Source of the DNA: Candidatus Parcubacteria bacterium
GTDB taxonomy: Bacteria; Patescibacteriota; Minisyncoccia; Phycocordibacterales; CAIZLB01
Direction of reading: 5' to 3'
Assembly: GCA_043760135.1 (NCBI GenBank)
Contig: JAYUPL010000014.1
Span: 25,347 to 89,346, forward strand
DNA length: 64,000 nucleotides
The translations under genes were made by a program, and so were the position numbers. This document shows, in pieces, positions 1,688 through 50,334 of this stretch (the stretch's first letter is position 1; every line of letters starts with the position of its first letter). The notes beneath the pieces were generated by a model, which was not told the DNA's origin, searched no databases, and saw nothing but the letters and a program-made list of their open reading frames with translations.

Positions 1688-2101
1688 ATGGAAGCAGTAA
1701 ACAATAAAAAATTATACGTAGGAAACCTATCATGGGGAATCAGTGATGATTCATTAAGAGCTGCTTTTGCAGAATTTGGTGAAGTTACATCAGCACAAGT
1801 TGCTATGGATAGAATGACAGGTAGATCAAGAGGATTCGCATTCGTTGAATTCGCAACTGATGAAGCTGCTGCAGCCGCAGTTGCAGCATTGGATGGTCGT
1901 GAATTAGACGGAAGAGAATTGAGAGTAAACATCGCTATGCCAAAAACAGAAGGAGGCTCATCAGCACCAAGAAGATCTTTTGGTGGAGATAGAGGTGGAC
2001 AAGGTGGTGGATACTCAAGAGGTGGAGACAGAGGAGGTGATAGAGGTGGATATTCTTCACCAAGAGGTGGACAAGGTGGTGGATACTCAAGAGGATACTA
2101 A
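1688..2101 (+). CDS. RRM-domain RNA-binding protein with C-terminal RGG/Gly-rich tail
   Basis: RNP-2 motif LYVGNL and RNP-1 motif RGFAFVEF. Tail has repeated GGDRGG/RGG units. Confidence 0.85.
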   Translation: MEAVNNKKLYVGNLSWGISDDSLRAAFAEFGEVTSAQVAMDRMTGRSRGFAFVEFATDEAAAAAVAALDGRELDGRELRVNIAMPKTEGGSSAPRRSFGGDRGGQGGGYSRGGDRGGDRGGYSSPRGGQGGGYSRGY

Positions 2102-2143
2102 TCTTTCGATAAAACCTTTGGTATTTTTTAAATAAAATAAATT

Positions 2144-2178
2144 AAAACTATGTGTTAATTCACATAGTTTTAATTTTT
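2144..2178 (+). terminator. hairpin aaaactatgtg-ttaatt-cacatagtttt + aattttt
   Basis: 11-bp perfect stem immediately after the RRM gene, followed by an A/T run. Confidence 0.5.
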
Positions 2179-2240
2179 AACTCCTCGGTTCGGAAATAAG
2201 TATTTGTATACTTATTTCTCTCACTCTACGTCGTTAATAA
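2177..2240 (+). repeat. conserved structured element, copy 1: TTAACTCCTCGGTTCGGAAA-[hairpin gaaataagtat/ttgt/atacttatttc]-TCTCTCACTCTACGTCGTTAATAA
   Basis: Flanks are identical to the reverse complement of 9658..9723. The central hairpin differs in sequence but keeps the same stem-loop geometry (compensatory changes). A hairpin plus T6 follows (2241..2275). Confidence 0.55.
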
Positions 2241-2280
2241 ACAAAAGACGCGACAAAATCGTGTTTTTTGTTTATTATAT

Positions 2281-3504
2281 ATGTATATGAAATTTTCTTA
2301 CATCGCAAAGAAAGCAGACGACTCTACGTATGAAAGTATTTTTGTTACAGAATCAAAAACAGATTTATTTAATAAAATAAAACAAAGTGGTGATGTTCTT
2401 GTTTCTTATAAAATAATAACAGATGACAAGTTTCAGGTTGCTTGGAATAAATTTCTGTCTTCATTTTCAAAAGTAAAAATGATAGATAAGATAGTGTTTG
2501 CTCGTAACTTAGCAAACATGCTTGAGGCTGGACTTTCTTTGACACGTTCTATTTCTGTGATGGAAAAACAGAGTAAAAATAAAAAACTAAAAAATATTTA
2601 TCATGAAATTAATCTTGACATATCAGCGGGTAAAACTTTTCATGATGCGTTAAATAAATGGAATACAGTATTTCCTCCAGTTTTTATTTCTATGGTGAAG
2701 GCTGGTGAGGAGTCTGGAAATCTAGCTGATTCTTTAAAGTCTGTTGGTACCCAAATGGAAGCAACATATAAGCTTCAAAAGAAAATTAAAGGAGCTATGA
2801 TGTATCCGTCCGTTATATTTGTTGTGATGATTTTGATTGCAATTATTATGATGGTGTTTGTTGTACCAAAATTGACCGCTACGTTTGCTGATGTAAAAGC
2901 TGAACTTCCAGGTTCAACAAAATTTGTTATTTTTGTGAGTGAGTTTTTAAGAAATCATTTTATATTACTACCTGTTGGTTTATTAATATTGATGACTGTA
3001 ATTTATCAAGTCCTTCACACAAAAGAAGGTAAGAATATTTTTGATAAGGTTATTATAAAACTACCTATCTTTGGAACTCTTATAAAAGAATCTAACTCTG
3101 CAAAAACTGCAAGAACGCTTTCATCACTGATAGGATCTGGAGTAGATTTGATTCAGTCAGTTGATATTACTTCCGAAGTTTTACAAAATAATTTATACAA
3201 AAAAGTTATGTTTGAAGTAAGAGAAAATGTAGAAAAAGGTAAGCCGATGTCGGACATATTCAGTCAACATGAAAATCTGTACCCTGTGTTTGTTTCAGAG
3301 ATGATAAATGTAGGTGAGGAAACTGGTAAGTTGTCGAGTATGCTCCAGGGGGTTGCTGGTTTTTATGAAAATGAGGTTGATCAAAAAACGAAAGATTTGT
3401 CTACAATTATAGAGCCTATTCTTATGGTATTTATAGGTGTTGCTGTTGGATTCTTTGCTATCTCTATGATTACTCCGATGTATAGTGTAATGAATAATAT
3501 ATAA
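2281..3504 (+). CDS. pilC: type IV pilus assembly / type II secretion platform protein PilC/GspF
   Basis: Polytopic membrane protein with two GspF-like repeats and GEESGNL/GEETGKL motifs. Confidence 0.85.
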   Translation: MYMKFSYIAKKADDSTYESIFVTESKTDLFNKIKQSGDVLVSYKIITDDKFQVAWNKFLSSFSKVKMIDKIVFARNLANMLEAGLSLTRSISVMEKQSKNKKLKNIYHEINLDISAGKTFHDALNKWNTVFPPVFISMVKAGEESGNLADSLKSVGTQMEATYKLQKKIKGAMMYPSVIFVVMILIAIIMMVFVVPKLTATFADVKAELPGSTKFVIFVSEFLRNHFILLPVGLLILMTVIYQVLHTKEGKNIFDKVIIKLPIFGTLIKESNSAKTARTLSSLIGSGVDLIQSVDITSEVLQNNLYKKVMFEVRENVEKGKPMSDIFSQHENLYPVFVSEMINVGEETGKLSSMLQGVAGFYENEVDQKTKDLSTIIEPILMVFIGVAVGFFAISMITPMYSVMNNI

Positions 3505-3507
3505 TAT

Positions 3508-3951
3508 ATGAAAAAAAATCTCATCACATACTGCAAGCAAAAAGGTTTTACATTCATAGAGATGATAATTTCTCTCGGTCTGGTTGCTATGATATCAAGT
3601 CTTATTTTAGTCTCGTTCAATTCTTTGAACAATAAACAGTCACTTGATAAACAGATGGACTTTATAAAATCAGCAATAGGAAAAACGAGAACCAATGCTA
3701 TTAATTCACTTAACGGTGCAGATCAAGTGTTTACCTTTGCTTCAACTTCTATCACATATAATAGTCAAACGATAGATCTAGATCCAAGCATCTTATTGTC
3801 ATCATACACAACCGGCAGTAAAAATATTACATTTTCAAGATTAACAGGTTATCCAAGTGCTACAGGAACTCTGATTTACGTACTTCAAAAAGGAAGCACT
3901 GTTATTGCAACCAGTAGTATTACAATAAATAATTTAGGAATTATAGAATAA
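3508..3951 (+). CDS. prepilin-type N-terminal methylation-domain protein (pilin/pseudopilin)
   Basis: N-terminus KGFTFIEMIISLGLVAMISSLILV (G-F-T-x-x-E prepilin motif followed by a hydrophobic helix). Confidence 0.7.
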   Translation: MKKNLITYCKQKGFTFIEMIISLGLVAMISSLILVSFNSLNNKQSLDKQMDFIKSAIGKTRTNAINSLNGADQVFTFASTSITYNSQTIDLDPSILLSSYTTGSKNITFSRLTGYPSATGTLIYVLQKGSTVIATSSITINNLGIIE

Positions 3952-4487
3952 TGAAATTAATAAAATTACAACAAGTCGTACAACAAGCGCACTTCTGTTT
4001 TGATAAATCAAAACAAGTCGTACAAAAAGGAATATCTTTAGTTGAGGTTATTATAGCTTCATCGATAATTAGTGTATCGATGATTTATATTTCTAATGTA
4101 TATGGAAATTTTTTAACTCTGTCTTTGGAAAATACTGACAAAGTGCAAGCAGTGTTCTTGTTAGACGAAGGGGTTGAAGCTGCAAAGACGATGAGAAACT
4201 ATGCATGGTCTTCTATTGCATCTTCAACTTCAGCTACGGATTATTATTTGGTGTGGCAGAGTGCTCGGTGGCAATCAACAACAACACCTGTGATTATTGA
4301 TAATAAGTTTATTAGAAAATTTACAGTTTCAGATGTATTTCGTGATGCTTCAACTTTGAACATTGTGACTAGTGGTGGAGTTCTGAATACAGACAGTAAG
4401 CTTGTAACTTTCGACGTATCTTGGAATTACAAAGGTGCAACATCAAGCAAGCAAATAAGTTTTTATATATTTAATCTATATGAATAA
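3951..4487 (+). CDS. prepilin-like minor pilin
   Basis: KGISLVEVIIASSIISVSMIYI N-terminal prepilin-like helix. Overlaps its neighbours by a few nt (operon). Confidence 0.55.
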   Translation: MKLIKLQQVVQQAHFCFDKSKQVVQKGISLVEVIIASSIISVSMIYISNVYGNFLTLSLENTDKVQAVFLLDEGVEAAKTMRNYAWSSIASSTSATDYYLVWQSARWQSTTTPVIIDNKFIRKFTVSDVFRDASTLNIVTSGGVLNTDSKLVTFDVSWNYKGATSSKQISFYIFNLYE

Positions 4488-5010
4488 AATAATTAACAAA
4501 AAAAAGAATAGCGGTTTTTCAATAATTGAAATAATTATTTATTTTTCAATACTCGCAATTATTTCTACTTTAGTAATTGGTAATATAATTTCACTTTTCA
4601 AAAACTATAATGTAGTAAGGGCTAATCAGGATATAGAATATAATGCCATTTCAATACTTGATAAGCTGACTCGAGATACTCGAGATGCTGCATTCATAAA
4701 TACATCAGACTCCTTATTTTCTGTGTCACAGGGTGCAATCTCTTTAAACATTGCAAGTTCGACTAATAGTACCGCTTCTAACACAGCTAAATTTTATCTA
4801 AACAATAATAAGATAAAATATAAAAAAGATGGTGTTGATTTTGGTAATCTTTCTACAAATGCAGTTACAGTTTCCAATTTTAAAATATATTATATAAATT
4901 CTTCCACCACTGAAGCTATAAAAGTAGAGCTGAATCTTGAAGTGACCCCTCACCTACATTCAGCAGTGATTTCTAAAAACTTTTACACTACTATACAACT
5001 TCGTGAATAA
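4480..5010 (+). CDS. prepilin-like minor pilin
   Basis: NSGFSIIEIIIYFSILAIISTLVIG prepilin-like N-terminus. Confidence 0.55.
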   Translation: MNKIINKKKNSGFSIIEIIIYFSILAIISTLVIGNIISLFKNYNVVRANQDIEYNAISILDKLTRDTRDAAFINTSDSLFSVSQGAISLNIASSTNSTASNTAKFYLNNNKIKYKKDGVDFGNLSTNAVTVSNFKIYYINSSTTEAIKVELNLEVTPHLHSAVISKNFYTTIQLRE

Positions 5011-5025
5011 TTAAGATATAATAAC

Positions 5026-6819
5026 TTGTATATGAGAAATAAGGGTACAAAAGAAAAAGGAGCAGCTATGATCATAGTTGTTTTATTTTTTATAATATTA
5101 TCGGCAACATTATTGATTGGAGTATCTACGCCTATATCAAATCAGATCAAGGGTACCAATGAATTTCTGATTTCCAAATCAAGCTACACTATTGCTGACA
5201 GTCAGGTGGAAAATTCACTTTATAGATTTAATAAGGGTAAAAATGACGCCCCAAGTGAATTATCATTATTGGATTCAACAGCTAACGCTGTCCTGACTGA
5301 GACGAGTGATGGAAGAAGTCTTGTGGTTCAAGGCAGTAAATCATTTTTTGATAGATATGTGAAAGCAATATTTCAGAAAGGTGAAGGTTATTCCTTTAAT
5401 TATGGAATCCAAGTGGGAAATGGTGGATTACAGATGACAGGTTCATCCTATGTGACAGGAAATGTATATTCGAATGGGGATATTTCAGGTTCTACTGGCG
5501 GTGGTGGTCCATACAAAAACTACATCACAGGAACTGCCATTGCTGCAACATTATCAAATCCAAATGTAAGTTTTAGTATATCAAGCTCAACGGCAGCTTA
5601 TCAGGCATATTCGATAGGTCAAACAGATACGAATCAGGATGTTTCTCAGTCTTTTGTTACAGCGACTACGACAGGTATTACTCAAATAACTTTTTTAATT
5701 AAAAAAACTGGAATACCTGCAAATGCTACTGTGAAGATCGTAAATAACAACTCAGGTGTACCCGGGTCTACTCTGATAACCTCAGGTACTTTAAATGCTT
5801 CATTGGTAACAACCTCTTTTGCTTATATTTCTGCATATATGTCTACTACTGTACCTTTGAGTGCTAATGCGACATATTGGATTGTTATTGATAATGGGTC
5901 AAATGATGCTTCAAATTACTACTCTGTGGCTGCATATGATGGGGTGTATTCGACCGGTACTACAAAACAAGGTAAATATGGTACATCTATGGTAAATCTT
6001 TCAACTACAACCCTAGATTTTGATCTTGGTATATTTGTAGGTGGTGATCCTGGAGTTATATTGAATGTAGGAGTTGGTACTTCGGGAACTGGTGATGCCT
6101 GGGCAAACACTGTGACAGGTAGTACTGTGGTGGGAACAGGTAGTTTGTTTTGTCAGATTGGTTCAGGTAACAATAAAGTCTGTGATACTTCAAAAATTGA
6201 CCCTGTAGCTGTTGCATATCCAATATCACAAGGAAATATTAATGATTGGAAAGATCAGGCTACGGCTGGAGGAGCAACAACAACCAATCTTTCAGTGCCC
6301 AGCTCGGGTACATCATCGCTCGGACCTATAAAAATTAATGGTAATTTGACAATAAGTAGTGCGGACTTGATTTTAACGGGACCTATTTATGTAACGGGAA
6401 ATGTTACGATTGATGGTGGTTCCGTAATATCTGCAGATCCTACATTGGCAGCTTTCAGTGCCTTGATTATTGCAGACGGGGTTATCAGTGTTACGGGTTC
6501 TGGAGGAATTAGCGGTTCTGGCACATATGGAAGTTATGTTATGCTAATTTCAGATAAGTCTTGTACTACAACGGCAAATTGTATTGCAAACCCGTCTATA
6601 ACTGTTGCAGGGTCGTCAGGTACTGTTGTTTTATATGCTATAAATGGTGGTGTTACACTATCTGGTTCTTCCAATGTAAAATCTATTGTTGCAAAACTTG
6701 TATACCTACAAGGTGGTGCTAATATAACTTATGAAACAGGTCTTGCTAACATGAGCTTTACCTCAGGCCCATCGGGGTCCTGGAACAGGAAATCTTGGAA
6801 AGAGGTATTGGGGTGGTGA
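5026..6819 (+). CDS. giant pilin-like protein (PilX-like hydrophobic N-terminus followed by a long Ser/Thr/Gly-rich beta-rich domain); putative pilus tip/adhesin
   Basis: N-terminus KGAAMIIVVLFFIILSATLLIGVSTPI. About 560 aa of low-complexity T/S/G-rich repeats. Last gene of the pilC-pilin operon. Confidence 0.5.
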   Translation: MYMRNKGTKEKGAAMIIVVLFFIILSATLLIGVSTPISNQIKGTNEFLISKSSYTIADSQVENSLYRFNKGKNDAPSELSLLDSTANAVLTETSDGRSLVVQGSKSFFDRYVKAIFQKGEGYSFNYGIQVGNGGLQMTGSSYVTGNVYSNGDISGSTGGGGPYKNYITGTAIAATLSNPNVSFSISSSTAAYQAYSIGQTDTNQDVSQSFVTATTTGITQITFLIKKTGIPANATVKIVNNNSGVPGSTLITSGTLNASLVTTSFAYISAYMSTTVPLSANATYWIVIDNGSNDASNYYSVAAYDGVYSTGTTKQGKYGTSMVNLSTTTLDFDLGIFVGGDPGVILNVGVGTSGTGDAWANTVTGSTVVGTGSLFCQIGSGNNKVCDTSKIDPVAVAYPISQGNINDWKDQATAGGATTTNLSVPSSGTSSLGPIKINGNLTISSADLILTGPIYVTGNVTIDGGSVISADPTLAAFSALIIADGVISVTGSGGISGSGTYGSYVMLISDKSCTTTANCIANPSITVAGSSGTVVLYAINGGVTLSGSSNVKSIVAKLVYLQGGANITYETGLANMSFTSGPSGSWNRKSWKEVLGW

Positions 6820-6841
6820 TAGAGTGTGATATAATATTTTA

Positions 6842-7651
6842 ATGATATCTAAAAAAACGATTGTAATTGCAAATCTCAAGGCATCCAATAGTGTATATAA
6901 AGAAGTTGAAAAAAAGATTACTCTTTTATGTAAAGTTTTAAGTAAAGATAAATCCAAAGTAGATTTGATTGTTGCTCCTGTATTTTTACATCTCTCTCGT
7001 CTTAAGACTTTTTTTAAAAAATCTGTATCTCTATCTGCTCAGGATGTATCTTTATTTGAAAATGGATCACATACAGGGGAAGTAACTGCAGGTTCCATAA
7101 AAGATGCTGGTATTGAGTATGTGATAATCGGTCACAGTGAAAAAAGAGAACAAGGTGATACTCAAGACATGGTGGTACAAAAAGTTCAAAATGCTATAAA
7201 AAATGATTTAAAGGTTGTCCTATGTATTGGTGAAAAAGATAGAGACGAAGGTGTAAAATATTTAAAGGTTATAGAAAATCAAATCACTTCAGTTTTTCAT
7301 ACTGTAGATAAAAAGAATCATGAAAATATTATCATAGCCTATGAACCTGTCTGGGCTATTAACAATAAAAATAATTTATCTATTGATGCTCATAGTTTGC
7401 ACTCTATGGTAATTTACATCAGAAAAATTTTACTTGAAAAATATGGTGAGGCAGTTTCTAAAAATATAAATATACTTTACGGTGGATCTCTTACTCCGGA
7501 GAATGCACAAGATATATTGTGGAATGGAGAAGTTCAAGGTTTACTTATTGGGCGTGCTTCATGGGAGGTTGATAGTCTCGTTAAAATTATAAAAAATATA
7601 ATCGTTAATCCGAAAAAAAGTCTACTAAAAGTTTATGGAAATAAAAAATAA
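6842..7651 (+). CDS. tpiA: triosephosphate isomerase
   Basis: Catalytic motifs IIGHSEKRE (His), AYEPVWAI (Glu) and YGGS. The usual GTG loop after AYEPVWAI is replaced by NNKNN. Confidence 0.85.
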   Translation: MISKKTIVIANLKASNSVYKEVEKKITLLCKVLSKDKSKVDLIVAPVFLHLSRLKTFFKKSVSLSAQDVSLFENGSHTGEVTAGSIKDAGIEYVIIGHSEKREQGDTQDMVVQKVQNAIKNDLKVVLCIGEKDRDEGVKYLKVIENQITSVFHTVDKKNHENIIIAYEPVWAINNKNNLSIDAHSLHSMVIYIRKILLEKYGEAVSKNINILYGGSLTPENAQDILWNGEVQGLLIGRASWEVDSLVKIIKNIIVNPKKSLLKVYGNKK

Positions 7652-8783
7652 AAAAGTATTACTACGTGCTGATTTCAATGTGCCTATAAAAGATAGTATT
7701 ATCAAGGATAATTACAGGATTGTATCAACTATTCCGACTTTAGAATTATTAAGAAATGCAGGAGCTAAAACAATTATTATTTCGCATATAGAAACTAAGG
7801 ATGCAGAAAAACCAACACTGAAACCTGTTTTTGATTATTTAAAAAATAATTATTCAGATTTAAATATTGAATTTATTGATAATGTTGAAATGCTAGAAGA
7901 TGCTTTAAATAATCTGGTTGATGGTGGATTTTTACTTTTAGAAAATATTAGAAATTTTGATGGAGAAAAAAATAATAGTACAGAACTTGCTGAAAATTTT
8001 AAAACATTAACAGAGGTGTACATCAATGATGCATTTGCAGTTTCGCATAGAGATCACATGTCTGTATCTGCGCTTCCTGCGTTGTACGATAAAGATCATA
8101 AAATGTTTGGATTACAGATGCAAAAAGAAATTAATAATTTATCAAAAATATTAATTCCAGAAAAACCTTCTGCTGTGATTTTGTCTGGTGCAAAATTTTC
8201 CACTAAGCTACCGTTGATTGAAAAATATTTACAAACTGCTGACAAGCTTTTGATTGGTGGTGCATTGTTTAACAACGTTTTAAGATCACTCGGACACAAT
8301 ATCGGAAAATCTTTGATAGATACTGAGGCTGATTTAACAACATTGGTTACAAGTGAGAATTTTATTAAAAAAGTTTATATACCGAAAACTGTTATTGTTA
8401 AAAATATAGATACAAATGAAGTTAGAAAATCTAGTGTACAGGATGTAAAAGAGAATGAGAGTATAATGGATGTGGACAGTATACAAAATTTTGTACAAAT
8501 CTTAAAAGATGAAAATTATAAAACCATAGTATGGAATGGGCCTCTTGGATATTATGAGGATGATCTGTTCAAAACAGGAACTTTGGAGTTGGCTAAAGGT
8601 TTAGTTGAATACGTGACTGTTCATGAAAACGCGCATCTATTTATAGGAGGAGGAGATACTGTGGGTGCAATACAAAGCATGCACATAGATAGTCAAAGGA
8701 TATTTATCTCAACCGGAGGTGGGGCAATGCTCGAGTTTTTGGAGAGGGATGGAAAATTACCTGGAGTTGTGAATGTTCAGTAG
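7635..8783 (+). CDS. pgk: phosphoglycerate kinase
   Basis: LRADFNVP, LLENIRNF and SHRDHMS motifs and a GGGDT-containing C-domain. 17-nt overlap with tpiA. Confidence 0.9.
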   Translation: MEIKNKKVLLRADFNVPIKDSIIKDNYRIVSTIPTLELLRNAGAKTIIISHIETKDAEKPTLKPVFDYLKNNYSDLNIEFIDNVEMLEDALNNLVDGGFLLLENIRNFDGEKNNSTELAENFKTLTEVYINDAFAVSHRDHMSVSALPALYDKDHKMFGLQMQKEINNLSKILIPEKPSAVILSGAKFSTKLPLIEKYLQTADKLLIGGALFNNVLRSLGHNIGKSLIDTEADLTTLVTSENFIKKVYIPKTVIVKNIDTNEVRKSSVQDVKENESIMDVDSIQNFVQILKDENYKTIVWNGPLGYYEDDLFKTGTLELAKGLVEYVTVHENAHLFIGGGDTVGAIQSMHIDSQRIFISTGGGAMLEFLERDGKLPGVVNVQ

Positions 8784-8840
8784 TTGTTGTATAAATACAT
8801 AATCTGAAAATGTATTTCAGACTGTACTACCCACAAAACC

Positions 8841-9272
8841 ATGAAAACCACACATTTGATTATTTTGTTCTTCGCGTTTTTTCTCTCTGCTTCGGCGCAG
8901 ACTGGTCCGAGTTATGGACTTCCGAAACTCAAAGAGGTTCAAGGTGCTCGGACGAGTGTTGACGGTCGTTGGATTAACTATGACGGTAGTCTGTACCATA
9001 TAATGGACACTTCCTTCAATAAGGATTCGGATGAACCAATTCTTTTTGTAAATAGTGATCCATACATTGTTGGGGCTCGGATCACTCTCAATGATGAGTT
9101 CGTGTACTACGGTCGAAACAATTACCAAAAGTTTCGGACCGCTTGGAAACCGATGGTGATACGTGGAGGTGAGATAAAACGTCCAACTGGAGCAGTCTTA
9201 GGATTTGCAGTTTTTATTGCTATTTTTATAACCTGCTTCGCAAGATCTACTGCCAAAAGGACAGCATGGTAG
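8841..9272 (+). CDS. hypothetical secreted protein with C-terminal TM anchor
   Basis: Signal peptide MKTTHLIILFFAFFLSASAQ, C-terminal hydrophobic segment, GC above background. Confidence 0.4.
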   Translation: MKTTHLIILFFAFFLSASAQTGPSYGLPKLKEVQGARTSVDGRWINYDGSLYHIMDTSFNKDSDEPILFVNSDPYIVGARITLNDEFVYYGRNNYQKFRTAWKPMVIRGGEIKRPTGAVLGFAVFIAIFITCFARSTAKRTAW

Positions 9273-9379
9273 GTGAATCTGTTTTTGTTTTCAAATCAAC
9301 CCTCGGGACTCTAAAAGTTCCAGGGTTTTCTTTTTATTTGATAAATTGCTGTTGGTGAGGTATACATAAAGTATCCGAA

Positions 9380-9601
9380 ATGGTTTCGGATCTTGAACCT
9401 TCGACCTATATGAGAACCATAAGCACCGTTTTCCTCGTTTTACTTACTGTCAAATTATTTTTCTCCTTCAGTGGTGTGCCGTTGTTTATTGTTATGATCG
9501 TTTCTGTATTTGCTGTTCCTTTCTTTATTATGGAGATACTCTACATCTCTCAAGATAGGGACAGTGACCTCGGATATATCAATCGATCTTCTAACTGGTA
9601 A
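9380..9601 (+). CDS. hypothetical small membrane protein
   Basis: Two predicted TM helices. No recognisable family. Confidence 0.3.
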   Translation: MVSDLEPSTYMRTISTVFLVLLTVKLFFSFSGVPLFIVMIVSVFAVPFFIMEILYISQDRDSDLGYINRSSNW

Positions 9602-9624
9602 CCTTGTGCAAACCCAAATCAAAA

Positions 9625-9657
9625 ATCCCCGGACTTTTACAGGACTGGGGATTCTCT
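9625..9657 (-). terminator. rho-independent terminator (minus-strand reading: ccccagtcctgtaaaagtccgggga + TTTTT)
   Basis: GC-rich stem followed by a T-run on the minus strand. It closes the structured region downstream of the DoxX-like gene. Confidence 0.55.
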
Positions 9658-9723
9658 TTATTAACGACGTAGAGTGAGAGAAACAAAAGTGATGACACTT
9701 TTGTTTCCGAACCGAGGAGTTAA
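9658..9723 (-). repeat. conserved structured element, copy 2 (inverted orientation): same flanks as copy 1, central hairpin gaaacaaaagtg/tcat/cacttttgtttc
   Basis: Reverse complement matches 2177..2240 in both flanks (about 20 + 24 nt identical). The hairpin sequence differs but is fully compensatory. Confidence 0.55.
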
Positions 9724-9819
9724 CGGTAAATACCTCGGAGCTTTGCTCCGGCACATGGACAAGCAAAGCTTGTTCGATGTGATACCTCGATGCTCTGCAT
9801 CGGGGAGGTATTCATTTAA

Positions 9820-43973: not shown

Positions 43974-44103
43974 TATATGAAAATTTGGTAGGTGTAAATA
44001 GGGATGATTGGGTCCTTATATTATGACCTTTGTGGTTACAGGACCAGTATATCTTTCGAATCTCACCCGCAAGCCGAACTGTCGGCTTGCTCTCCATCTA
44101 ATG

Positions 44104-44136
44104 AAAAACAGATGTCTTTAAAAGACATCTGTTTTT
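44104..44136. terminator. palindromic hairpin aaaaacagatgtctttt/aaaagacatctgttttt
   Basis: 15-bp perfect palindrome with A/T runs, adjacent to the 3' end of tRNA-Ser. Confidence 0.55.
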
Positions 44137-44141
44137 CCTAG

Positions 44142-44228
44142 CGGAGGAGGTGAGATTCGAACTCACGGGACCCGTTAGAGCCCTCTTGTTTTCAAGACAA
44201 GCGCATTCGACCTCTCTGCCACTCCTCC
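44142..44228 (-). tRNA. tRNA-Ser (anticodon TGA), class II with long variable arm
   Basis: Reverse complement ggaggag-tg-gcagagaggtcgaatgcgc-ttgtc-ttTGAaa-acaag-agggctctaacgggtccc-gtgag-ttcgaat-ctcac-ctcctcc-g closely matches bacterial tRNA-Ser(UGA). Confidence 0.8.
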
Positions 44229-50295: not shown

Positions 50296-50333
50296 AAATA
50301 AATAGAGCCCTTAAAAAAGGACCCTATTTATTT
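50296..50333. terminator. long AT-rich palindrome aaataaatag-agcccttaaaaaaggacc-ctatttattt
   Basis: 10-bp perfect outer stem with an inner cctt/aagg stem. Confidence 0.4.
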
Positions 50334-50334
50334 C

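Follow-up and report, generated by a model that had tools for sequence, protein, structure and literature searches.

What are two copies of a short folded sequence doing at either end of a pilus and glycolysis gene block in a Candidatus Parcubacteria genome? An initial annotation of a 64,000-nt stretch of contig JAYUPL010000014.1 (positions 25,347–89,346; we refer to the whole stretch as the window) described an inverted pair of ~65-nt elements bracketing 7.4 kb of DNA. It offered three candidates: a structured small-RNA family, a transcription-attenuation element, or inverted repeats that end a segment able to invert or to be mobilised. Our analysis leads to a different answer, to which we give about even credence: a non-autonomous, interspersed mobile element of ~100–165 nt and of selfish type has inserted twice, independently, to give the two segments.

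The resemblance between the two segments is as originally described. A 20-nt sequence (TTAACTCCTCGGTTCGGAAA) and a 24-nt sequence (TCTCTCACTCTACGTCGTTAATAA) each occur exactly twice in the window, as exact matches at 2177–2196 and 2217–2240 on the plus strand and at 9723–9704 and 9681–9658 on the minus strand. The numbers of matches expected by chance were 0.01 and 0.00, and two matches arose in 0 of 100 shuffles. Between these shared flanks lies a hairpin that is unlike in sequence between the copies and perfectly paired (11–13 bp) in both. A covariance model scan of the window found no third copy; a 21.6-bit match at 44085–44159 (minus strand) was rejected as the 3′ end of a tRNA-Ser gene with its terminator.

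The gene block is shared with relatives that lack both copies

A domain scan confirmed the reported gene content between the copies, with T2SS-F/PilC, three N-methyl prepilin-like genes, TIM and PGK. The block also holds a 597-aa open reading frame (ORF), and a gene for an RRM/RGG protein lies upstream of it. We compared the syntenic region in six relatives (loci L001, L005, L008, L051/L052 and L053), whose PilC proteins are 71%–89% identical; by its PilC homologues, the genome belongs to Patescibacteria/Parcubacteria. All share one gene order and orientation (trigger factor, RRM gene, pilC, pilins, tpiA, pgk, DoxX, HIT, recJ), and in these six neither copy was found by fuzzy search or by covariance model. 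In the relatives the spacer between the RRM gene and pilC is 65–82 nt long and ends in the window's terminator (AATAAAACAAAAGACGCGAC...GTTTATT); from AATAAACAAAAGACGCGAC onward, the window sequence is ancestral, being shared with L001, L005, L008, L051 and L053. At the other site, the DoxX stop codon and a bidirectional terminator are separated by 11–14 nt in L005, L051 and L053, and the homologous terminator hairpin is kept in these three loci and in L027.

Both terminators are ancestral, because they are present in relatives that lack the element. The hairpin and T-run noted 3′ of each copy on its own strand do exist (~2235–2277, plus; ~9656–9613, minus), but they do not belong to the element: the first is the inherited terminator of the RRM gene, the second that of the DoxX/small-ORF pair. 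Some 100 nt (copy 1) and 160 nt (copy 2) were thus inserted between a stop codon and a terminator, at two separate places.

These alignments bear directly on two of the three original candidates. The idea that the 7.4-kb pilus/glycolysis segment can invert or be mobilised, with the pair as its terminal inverted repeats, is already contradicted by synteny, and we regard it as almost certainly wrong. The window copies are indeed inverted (convergent), and adjacent inverted pairs elsewhere are convergent in six cases and divergent in one, a difference that is not significant. Yet the order, orientation and neighbours of the block are unchanged in the six relatives without both copies, which show it in a single orientation, and none of ten ORFs scanned between 503 and 9272 carries a recombinase domain. 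Each copy also has solo homologues elsewhere, and the two derive from different sub-lineages, as their P2 hairpins and 5′ domains differ. A cis-acting attenuator or riboswitch controlling downstream genes such as pilC is likewise contradicted, and hardly deserves any weight. A structured element followed by a hairpin and T-run upstream of pilC looks the part, but the terminator belongs to the upstream RRM gene, and relatives without the element have an otherwise equal pilC leader. Both copies follow stop codons, and copy 2 faces a convergent gene. Among ~150 copies we found no recurrent neighbour gene, preferred downstream gene or preferred orientation; the coherent set of 5′-leader genes that goes with riboswitches and attenuators is missing, the largest neighbour cluster covering six of ~150 loci.

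Filled and empty sites, tandem arrays and an insertion within a gene

Filled and empty sites occur in both directions: the two window copies are absent from relatives, and a copy in the metagenome-assembled genome (MAG) GFS_112 is absent from the window. That copy (L025) lies 5′ of AATAAACAGAGCCC beside a tRNA-Val gene, where the window (50297–50334) has just AATAAATAGAGCCC, an AATAAA-hairpin target. Three of three filled/empty comparisons place the insertion at an AATAAA tract where the 5′ side of a terminator hairpin begins, at its foot, and in all three the 3′ end of the element faces that hairpin. GFS_112 also has a copy at the DoxX site of window copy 2 (L027), with a different 5′ module. 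Copy 2 is 83%–94% identical over ~160 nt to copies at unrelated loci in the MAGs GFS_112 and GFS_1662.

Copies are also found head to tail in tandem arrays, at L020:1–368 (a Vogelbacteria MAG, with a period of 159 nt), L066 ~3139–3241 and L109:1583–1736. The units of the latter two are ~80–90 nt long and hold little beyond a short hairpin and the core. In another Vogelbacteria locus (L026), a complete 159-nt unit (~5758–5920) lies in frame and free of stops inside an RNase R gene (5399–7297, minus strand), the only in-gene copy among ~170. It encodes 53 aa in the linker between the RNB and S1 domains, which are extra residues relative to the closest homologue, P0122 (69% identical, 581 aa; without the unit), and to three other homologues. 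A protein from ENA, P0121, is 99% identical to the L026 RNase R and equal to it in length (632 aa), so it probably carries the 53-aa insert too.

Anatomy of the two copies

The extent of ~65 nt first given to the element did not stand: the units are longer, running over ~2137–2240 in copy 1 and ~9817–9655 on the minus strand in copy 2. Copy 1 lies between the stop codon of the RRM/RGG gene (2101) and the ancestral terminator of that gene, and copy 2 between the DoxX stop codon (9820) and the bidirectional terminator. In the fold of each core, a 5-bp outer helix (UUAAC/GUUAA) is joined through an asymmetric internal loop to a hairpin (z = −3.5 and −5.0). The features are as follows.

2137..2240, plus strand: copy 1, whole unit in its minimal form, P0 and core (fold z = −8.4)
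2139..2176, plus strand: copy 1 P0 hairpin, 16 pairs with loop UUAAUU (from the fold; a long P0)
2177..2181, plus strand: copy 1 P1 5′ strand, UUAAC (partner 2233–2237)
2182..2192, plus strand: copy 1 conserved 5′ internal loop, UCCUCGGUUCG (loop conservation in the family alignment)
2193..2218, plus strand: copy 1 P2 hairpin, 11 bp with loop UUGU (from the fold)
2219..2232, plus strand: copy 1 conserved 3′ internal loop, UCUCACUCUACGUC (CTC.CTCTA.GTCG nearly invariant)
2233..2240, plus strand: copy 1 P1 3′ strand GUUAA with the A-rich tail UAA, overlapping the base of the extended terminator stem
2235..2277, plus strand: intrinsic terminator of the RRM gene, pre-existing and outside the element (conserved in element-free relatives)
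9655..9817, minus strand: copy 2, whole unit in the typical long form (fold z = −7.2)
9728..9813, minus strand: copy 2 5′ domain, ~90 nt, with closing helix GAAUACCUC/GAGGUAUU around three hairpins (from the fold)
9658..9723, minus strand: copy 2 core (88.7 bits with the covariance model)
9723–9719/9665–9661, minus strand: copy 2 P1
9718–9708, minus strand: copy 2 5′ loop
9707–9680, minus strand: copy 2 P2
9679–9666, minus strand: copy 2 3′ loop
9660–9658, minus strand: copy 2 tail
9613..9656, minus strand: bidirectional terminator between the small ORF 9380–9601 (plus) and DoxX (minus), pre-existing and outside the element (terminator scan)

The three hairpins of the copy 2 5′ domain are H1 (GAUGC-AGA-GCAUC), H2 (CACAU..AUGUG) and H3 (GGAGC-AAA-GCUCC). 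A protein-coding origin of the core was rejected, as the loops are conserved at every position and the frame differs between the window copies, which differ by 2 nt within P2 so that the reading frame shifts. A 103-aa ORF running through copy 2 (9455–9766, minus strand) is spurious, being antisense to the ORF 9380–9601.

We also observed that the pgk–DoxX interval (8784–9819 in the window) is variable in itself. It spans 25 nt in L001 and 360–1030 nt elsewhere, and carries differing small hydrophobic ORFs (8841–9272 and 9380–9601 in the window). A conserved hairpin (GUAUCCGAAAUGGUUUCGGAUC) occurs at 9370–9391 in the window and at ~16460–16481 in L005, 5′ of its small ORF.

A family of covarying elements in Patescibacteria

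The initial annotation suspected a family, and further copies exist in number, with ~50 in GTDB genomes and more than 120 metagenome stretches. Scanned with an exact pattern, the GTDB genomes (one for each species) gave 41 genome stretches, with up to ~20 copies per MAG (~20 in GFS_112 and ~9 in GFS_1662). A degenerate-pattern scan of JGI and ENA metagenomes matched at least 120 stretches; the matches listed come mostly from groundwater and sediment, and the commonest variant among them is UCCUCGGCUCGG...CUCGCUCUACGUCG, the window having the UUCGG/CUCACUC variant. A covariance model built from 29 copies added copies in loci where the search patterns had missed them. Copy 1 is also present in Logan run SRR23617251. 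Many contig ends fall inside the element. Viral contigs gave 0 matches with the strict and degenerate patterns.

Nearly all GTDB hosts are Parcubacteria/Paceibacterota, Vogel-, Lloyd- or Komeilibacteria, or unclassified Patescibacteria, and essentially all of the family is restricted to Patescibacteria. Two element-bearing contigs (L049 and L041) are binned as Nitrospira sp. and Gammaproteobacteria, and a PilC protein 89% identical to that of the window (P0006) is labelled Arenimonas sp.; all three are probably mis-binned Patescibacteria contigs.

The core has a fixed order: helix P1 comes first, followed by 11 loop nucleotides (UCCUCGGYUCG), hairpin P2, 14 further loop nucleotides (NCUCRCUCUACGUC), the returning strand P1′ and an A-rich tail. 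The 5′ accessory hairpin domain is variable, consisting of P0 and sometimes H1–H3. In most copies P0 immediately precedes P1, and it covaries (AAAGGU-AUUAA-ACCUUU; AGU/ACU vs. GGU/ACC). Its loop can hold one to three further hairpins, which gives short and long forms, the module being found with or without H2–H3.

Evidence that this structure is maintained came from the alignment. Across 105 distinct copies, standard pairs filled 92% of cells, compared with 44%–52% when partners were slid by 1–3 columns; 18 of 19 pairs had changes on both sides, and the observed values were reached in 0 of 500 shuffles. All 12 modelled P2 pairs have changed on both sides across the family, and P1 varies as a unit (UUAAC/GUUAA, UUAGC/GCUAA, UAAGC/GCUUA, CUGGC/GCCAG and CUAGCG/CGCUAG). 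The argument for selection on structure, first made from the two window copies, holds and is very strong with more than 100 copies. The loops behave in the opposite way to the helices: in an alignment of 108 copies, TCCTCGG, TCGG and the positions beside them show no variation or at least 95% conservation. This conservation is not merely a product of the search patterns, because copies outside those patterns, found by the model only, differ at just 1–3 loop positions. P2 is asymmetric between its strands, with a purine-rich 5′ strand and a pyrimidine-rich 3′ strand (857 A-U vs. 150 U-A pairs). Its 19 G·U pairs compared with 31 A·C mismatches show no strand-of-function asymmetry.

Two loci show the core in a wider setting. 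In L118 (~130–400) and L142 (~500–760), it lies inside a larger conserved unit of ~260 nt (CUAUCGCAAUCC ... GGCGAUGCGAAA) whose outer ends can pair. The flanks beyond this unit are non-homologous, the contigs are unrelated, and Rfam has nothing that matches the unit, which is a larger relative or else a nested element.

Genomic context

Clustering of 1961 flanking ORFs of ~150 copies gave no family in more than six loci, on either side or strand. Orientation relative to the neighbouring genes (E, element) was random (+E+ 26, −E− 32, +E− 21, −E+ 17), and orientations are mixed within single contigs (L024, L033, L056, L123, L127 and L152). Pfam scans of 199 ORFs (63 in the window and 136 next to copies) returned only housekeeping families among the 25 most frequent, and copies are mostly solitary among housekeeping genes. 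One copy lies between 23S and 5S rRNA genes (L022:1447–1521) and another between two tRNA genes, 3′ of 16S (L039:1249–1324). No conserved promoter-like sequence was found upstream of copies, nor a 5′ module separated from the core by an ORF. Terminator polarity statistics were discarded, as they are confounded by the element's own hairpins and A-rich ends.

Other observations concern particular neighbours. In L022, the 23S model positions 2373–2925 align to just 292 nt, with ~1.1 kb from there to the element, a hint that the 3′ region of this 23S is unusual. Genes for RGG-tailed RRM proteins lie within ~250 nt of a copy in the window (1688–2101), L060, L119 and L170, and the copies there are placed just 3′ of the gene end in either orientation; in L056 such a gene is ~1.8 kb away. 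This proximity may merely reflect strong A-tract terminators.

Comparison with known families

The family appears undescribed. Rfam 15 at the gathering threshold returned five tRNAs in the window and nothing else, and a search around both copies at E ≤ 10 returned just hairpin and terminator look-alikes far below threshold. In 32 further loci, including the dominant variant, it gave rRNA, tRNA or sub-threshold chance matches. The families covered include hammerhead, twister, twister-sister, pistol, hatchet and HDV-like ribozymes, riboswitches, and the IS605-orfB and HEARO RNAs. In the literature searched, we did not find the loop sequences or such a Patescibacteria repeat, ribozyme or structured RNA. 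The TIGR-Tas arrays of the candidate phyla radiation were set aside, as their variable loops and conserved stems are the opposite pattern. Inspection by eye also excluded group II intron domain V, the tRNA T-arm, 5S rRNA, the K-turn and the hairpin ribozyme, whose defining bases are missing; no GUGYG or domain V-like hairpin was seen in the inspected copies.

Small interspersed repeats such as BOX, RUP and ERIC often adjoin terminators and are co-transcribed with flanking genes. The element resembles pneumococcal BOX and RUP, enterobacterial ERIC/IRU, REP/BIME and Neisseria Correia repeats, all of them stably folded, in length (~100–170 nt) and in being non-coding, multi-copy, intergenic and variable in copy number between relatives; like pneumococcal BOX, with its A-B(n)-C arrangement, it is modular, with short and long forms. 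The BOX, RUP, ERIC, REP and Correia families are restricted to a genus or family, and no transposase is known for them. In most such repeats, terminal inverted repeats pair into one long hairpin; Correia and RUP also duplicate a TA. The element, in contrast, has variable helices and two nearly invariant loop strands, occurs in many Patescibacteria lineages and has neither terminal inverted repeats nor a detectable duplication. The Rickettsia palindromic element is a short structured repeat found both intergenically and in frame within coding genes, which it leaves unbroken. The insertion in RNase R is alike in this respect, although sequence and host lineage are unrelated. Of the features of a miniature inverted-repeat transposable element (MITE), the family has multi-copy insertion polymorphism between relatives but lacks terminal inverted repeats, and no autonomous, transposase-bearing relative was seen, with no transposase among the 25 most frequent neighbour families.

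Selfish element or functional RNA

We favor a selfish element because its sites are polymorphic, it forms tandem arrays, it has inserted within a gene, it has no gene association and its orientation is random. Under the mechanism we propose, the element would be copied to new sites as a folded single strand. The helices would give it shape, and a trans-acting enzyme, its gene lying elsewhere in the genome, would read the ~25 invariant loop nucleotides. A-rich terminator feet would be its preferred or best-tolerated targets, and in the window the copies would be passively co-transcribed into the 3′ untranslated regions (UTRs) of the RRM gene and DoxX.

Several observations weigh against a selfish origin. 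The invariant loops shared by distant Patescibacteria, together with optional helices in hairpin loops, resemble a functional RNA more than a short-lived MITE, and the loop conservation itself is partly inflated, many loop bases being fixed in the search patterns. At the DoxX site, the core is almost identical between the window and L027 while the flanks are merely ~75% identical, which would imply purifying selection, gene conversion or repeated use of the site. There is no target-site duplication above the cross-copy background: the two flanks of a single copy share no longer direct repeat than flanks taken from different copies do, and A-rich repeats at the junctions (AATAA) are indistinguishable from the element's own A-rich ends. 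Suggestive duplications of 11 nt in L068 and 9 nt in L026 were rejected, being within expectation, and the L026 case clashes with the reading frame. Terminal inverted repeats of the whole unit are absent as well. Its 3′ end (..GUCGYUAAUAAA) is not the reverse complement of its 5′ end (AAAUGAAUACC.. or AAAUAAAGG..), and P1 sits within the unit, since the 5′ domain extends beyond this helix. The 25 most frequent neighbour families include no transposase, reverse transcriptase or recombinase that would be linked to the copies, and a large serine recombinase lies within 2.3 kb at just four loci. The missing inverted repeats and the lack of a detectable duplication or a linked enzyme argue against a classical DNA transposon. 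As a separate observation, the recombinase gene at the four loci (L013, L102, L109 and L122) is 0.6–2.3 kb away and always on the strand opposite to the element; the cases are too few to call an association.

The main rival, which we hold as a tentative possibility, is a structured RNA module useful to the host and repeatedly duplicated or recruited. It would serve as a protein-binding platform, a 3′-end stabiliser or processing signal, or a new self-cleaving ribozyme, within carrier transcripts or as a separate small RNA. In its favour, strong covariation in both helices surrounds ~25 unpaired nucleotides that hardly vary, helices can be added or left out in a modular architecture, P2 has its purine/pyrimidine asymmetry, and conservation of the core at the shared DoxX site far exceeds that of the flanks. 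Copies also occur in transcribed spacers (23S/5S in L022, tRNAs in L039, the 3′ UTRs of the window), and in L118 and L142 the core is part of the ~260-nt conserved unit. Orphan ribozymes such as twister, pistol and hatchet are similar in having compact covarying helices around invariant unpaired bases and in their scattered occurrence, at times in multiple or tandem copies, with no set gene context. But orientation relative to transcription units is random, unlike that of such ribozymes, so that half of the copies would be read in antisense if they had no promoters of their own; a conserved promoter was not found in front of them. There is no gene association, close relatives lack the two window copies, G·U pairs are rare and not commoner than A·C mismatches, and none of the ribozyme or riboswitch models in Rfam gives a hit, even at E ≤ 10. 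The structured small-RNA family first proposed stands as a covarying structured family; a role in host transcripts is disfavoured by the random orientation, the absence from close relatives, the lack of a conserved promoter-like sequence and the G·U count. A narrower version, which we consider rather unlikely, makes the core a new, Patescibacteria-specific class of functional RNA, either a ribozyme that cleaves itself or the recognition part in a retro-mobile RNA akin to a short interspersed nuclear element, whose A-rich 3′ tail would prime insertion at terminator T/A tracts. The invariant loops would then be a catalytic or protein-recruiting centre and not a DNA site. An adjacent reverse transcriptase, as in retron non-coding RNAs and group II introns, is not among the 25 most frequent neighbour families.

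Folded single-stranded DNA offers a further explanation, which we think improbable: an ORF-less palindrome-associated transposable element (PATE) of an IS200/IS605-type transposon, or a recombination site like integron attC, with hairpins read by a Y1/HUH enzyme or an integrase. IS200/IS605 ends, PATEs and attC sites likewise keep structure and not stem sequence and have no terminal inverted repeats, and the outline of attC (outer helix, unpaired spacer, inner helix, variable tip) resembles that of the element. The P1 5′ strand pairs beside the 3′ end, recalling guide/cleavage-site pairing. Watson-Crick pairing is near-perfect with few G·T pairs, both junctions are A-rich, and there is no clear duplication. 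PATEs, though, keep a single orientation relative to replication, whereas the window copies lie 7.4 kb apart on opposite strands with no switch in GC skew between them. The skew is positive throughout 1–14 kb, which places both in one replichore, and mixed orientations within contigs are common. Where attC has the R″/R′ consensus RYYYAAC...GTTRRRY, the window has TTAAC...GTTAATA, and most copies lack the consensus, having UUAGC/GCUAA, CUGGC/GCCAG or UAAGC/GCUUA instead. Y1_Tnp, OrfB and integrase are absent from the 25 most frequent neighbour families, tnpA and tnpB from the fetched flanks, and the element does not form cassette arrays (ORF and attC) beside intI. Nor do the long conserved loops, 11 and 14 nt, have a counterpart in IS200/IS605, PATE or attC sites.

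Between constraint on RNA and constraint on DNA, then, the data point both ways. The covarying helices, invariant unpaired bases, optional helices, P2 asymmetry and the better conservation of the core than of its flanks point to constraint on RNA or on a single strand.

Implications

For the window, our analysis means that the pilus/glycolysis block is ordinary chromosome and not a cassette. In practical terms, the element breaks assemblies of these MAGs and marks probable mis-binned contigs, and its copies can serve at once as the seed alignment from which to model a new RNA or repeat family. The genomes of Patescibacteria are tiny and streamlined, and are thought to be poor in repeats and in known non-coding RNAs. 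Because the element occurs in many of their lineages, reaches ~20 copies in some genomes, and is seated in 3′ UTRs, in rRNA and tRNA spacers and in the reading frame of an RNase R gene, it is either an unusually successful, long-lived selfish element or the carrier of an unrecognised RNA function.

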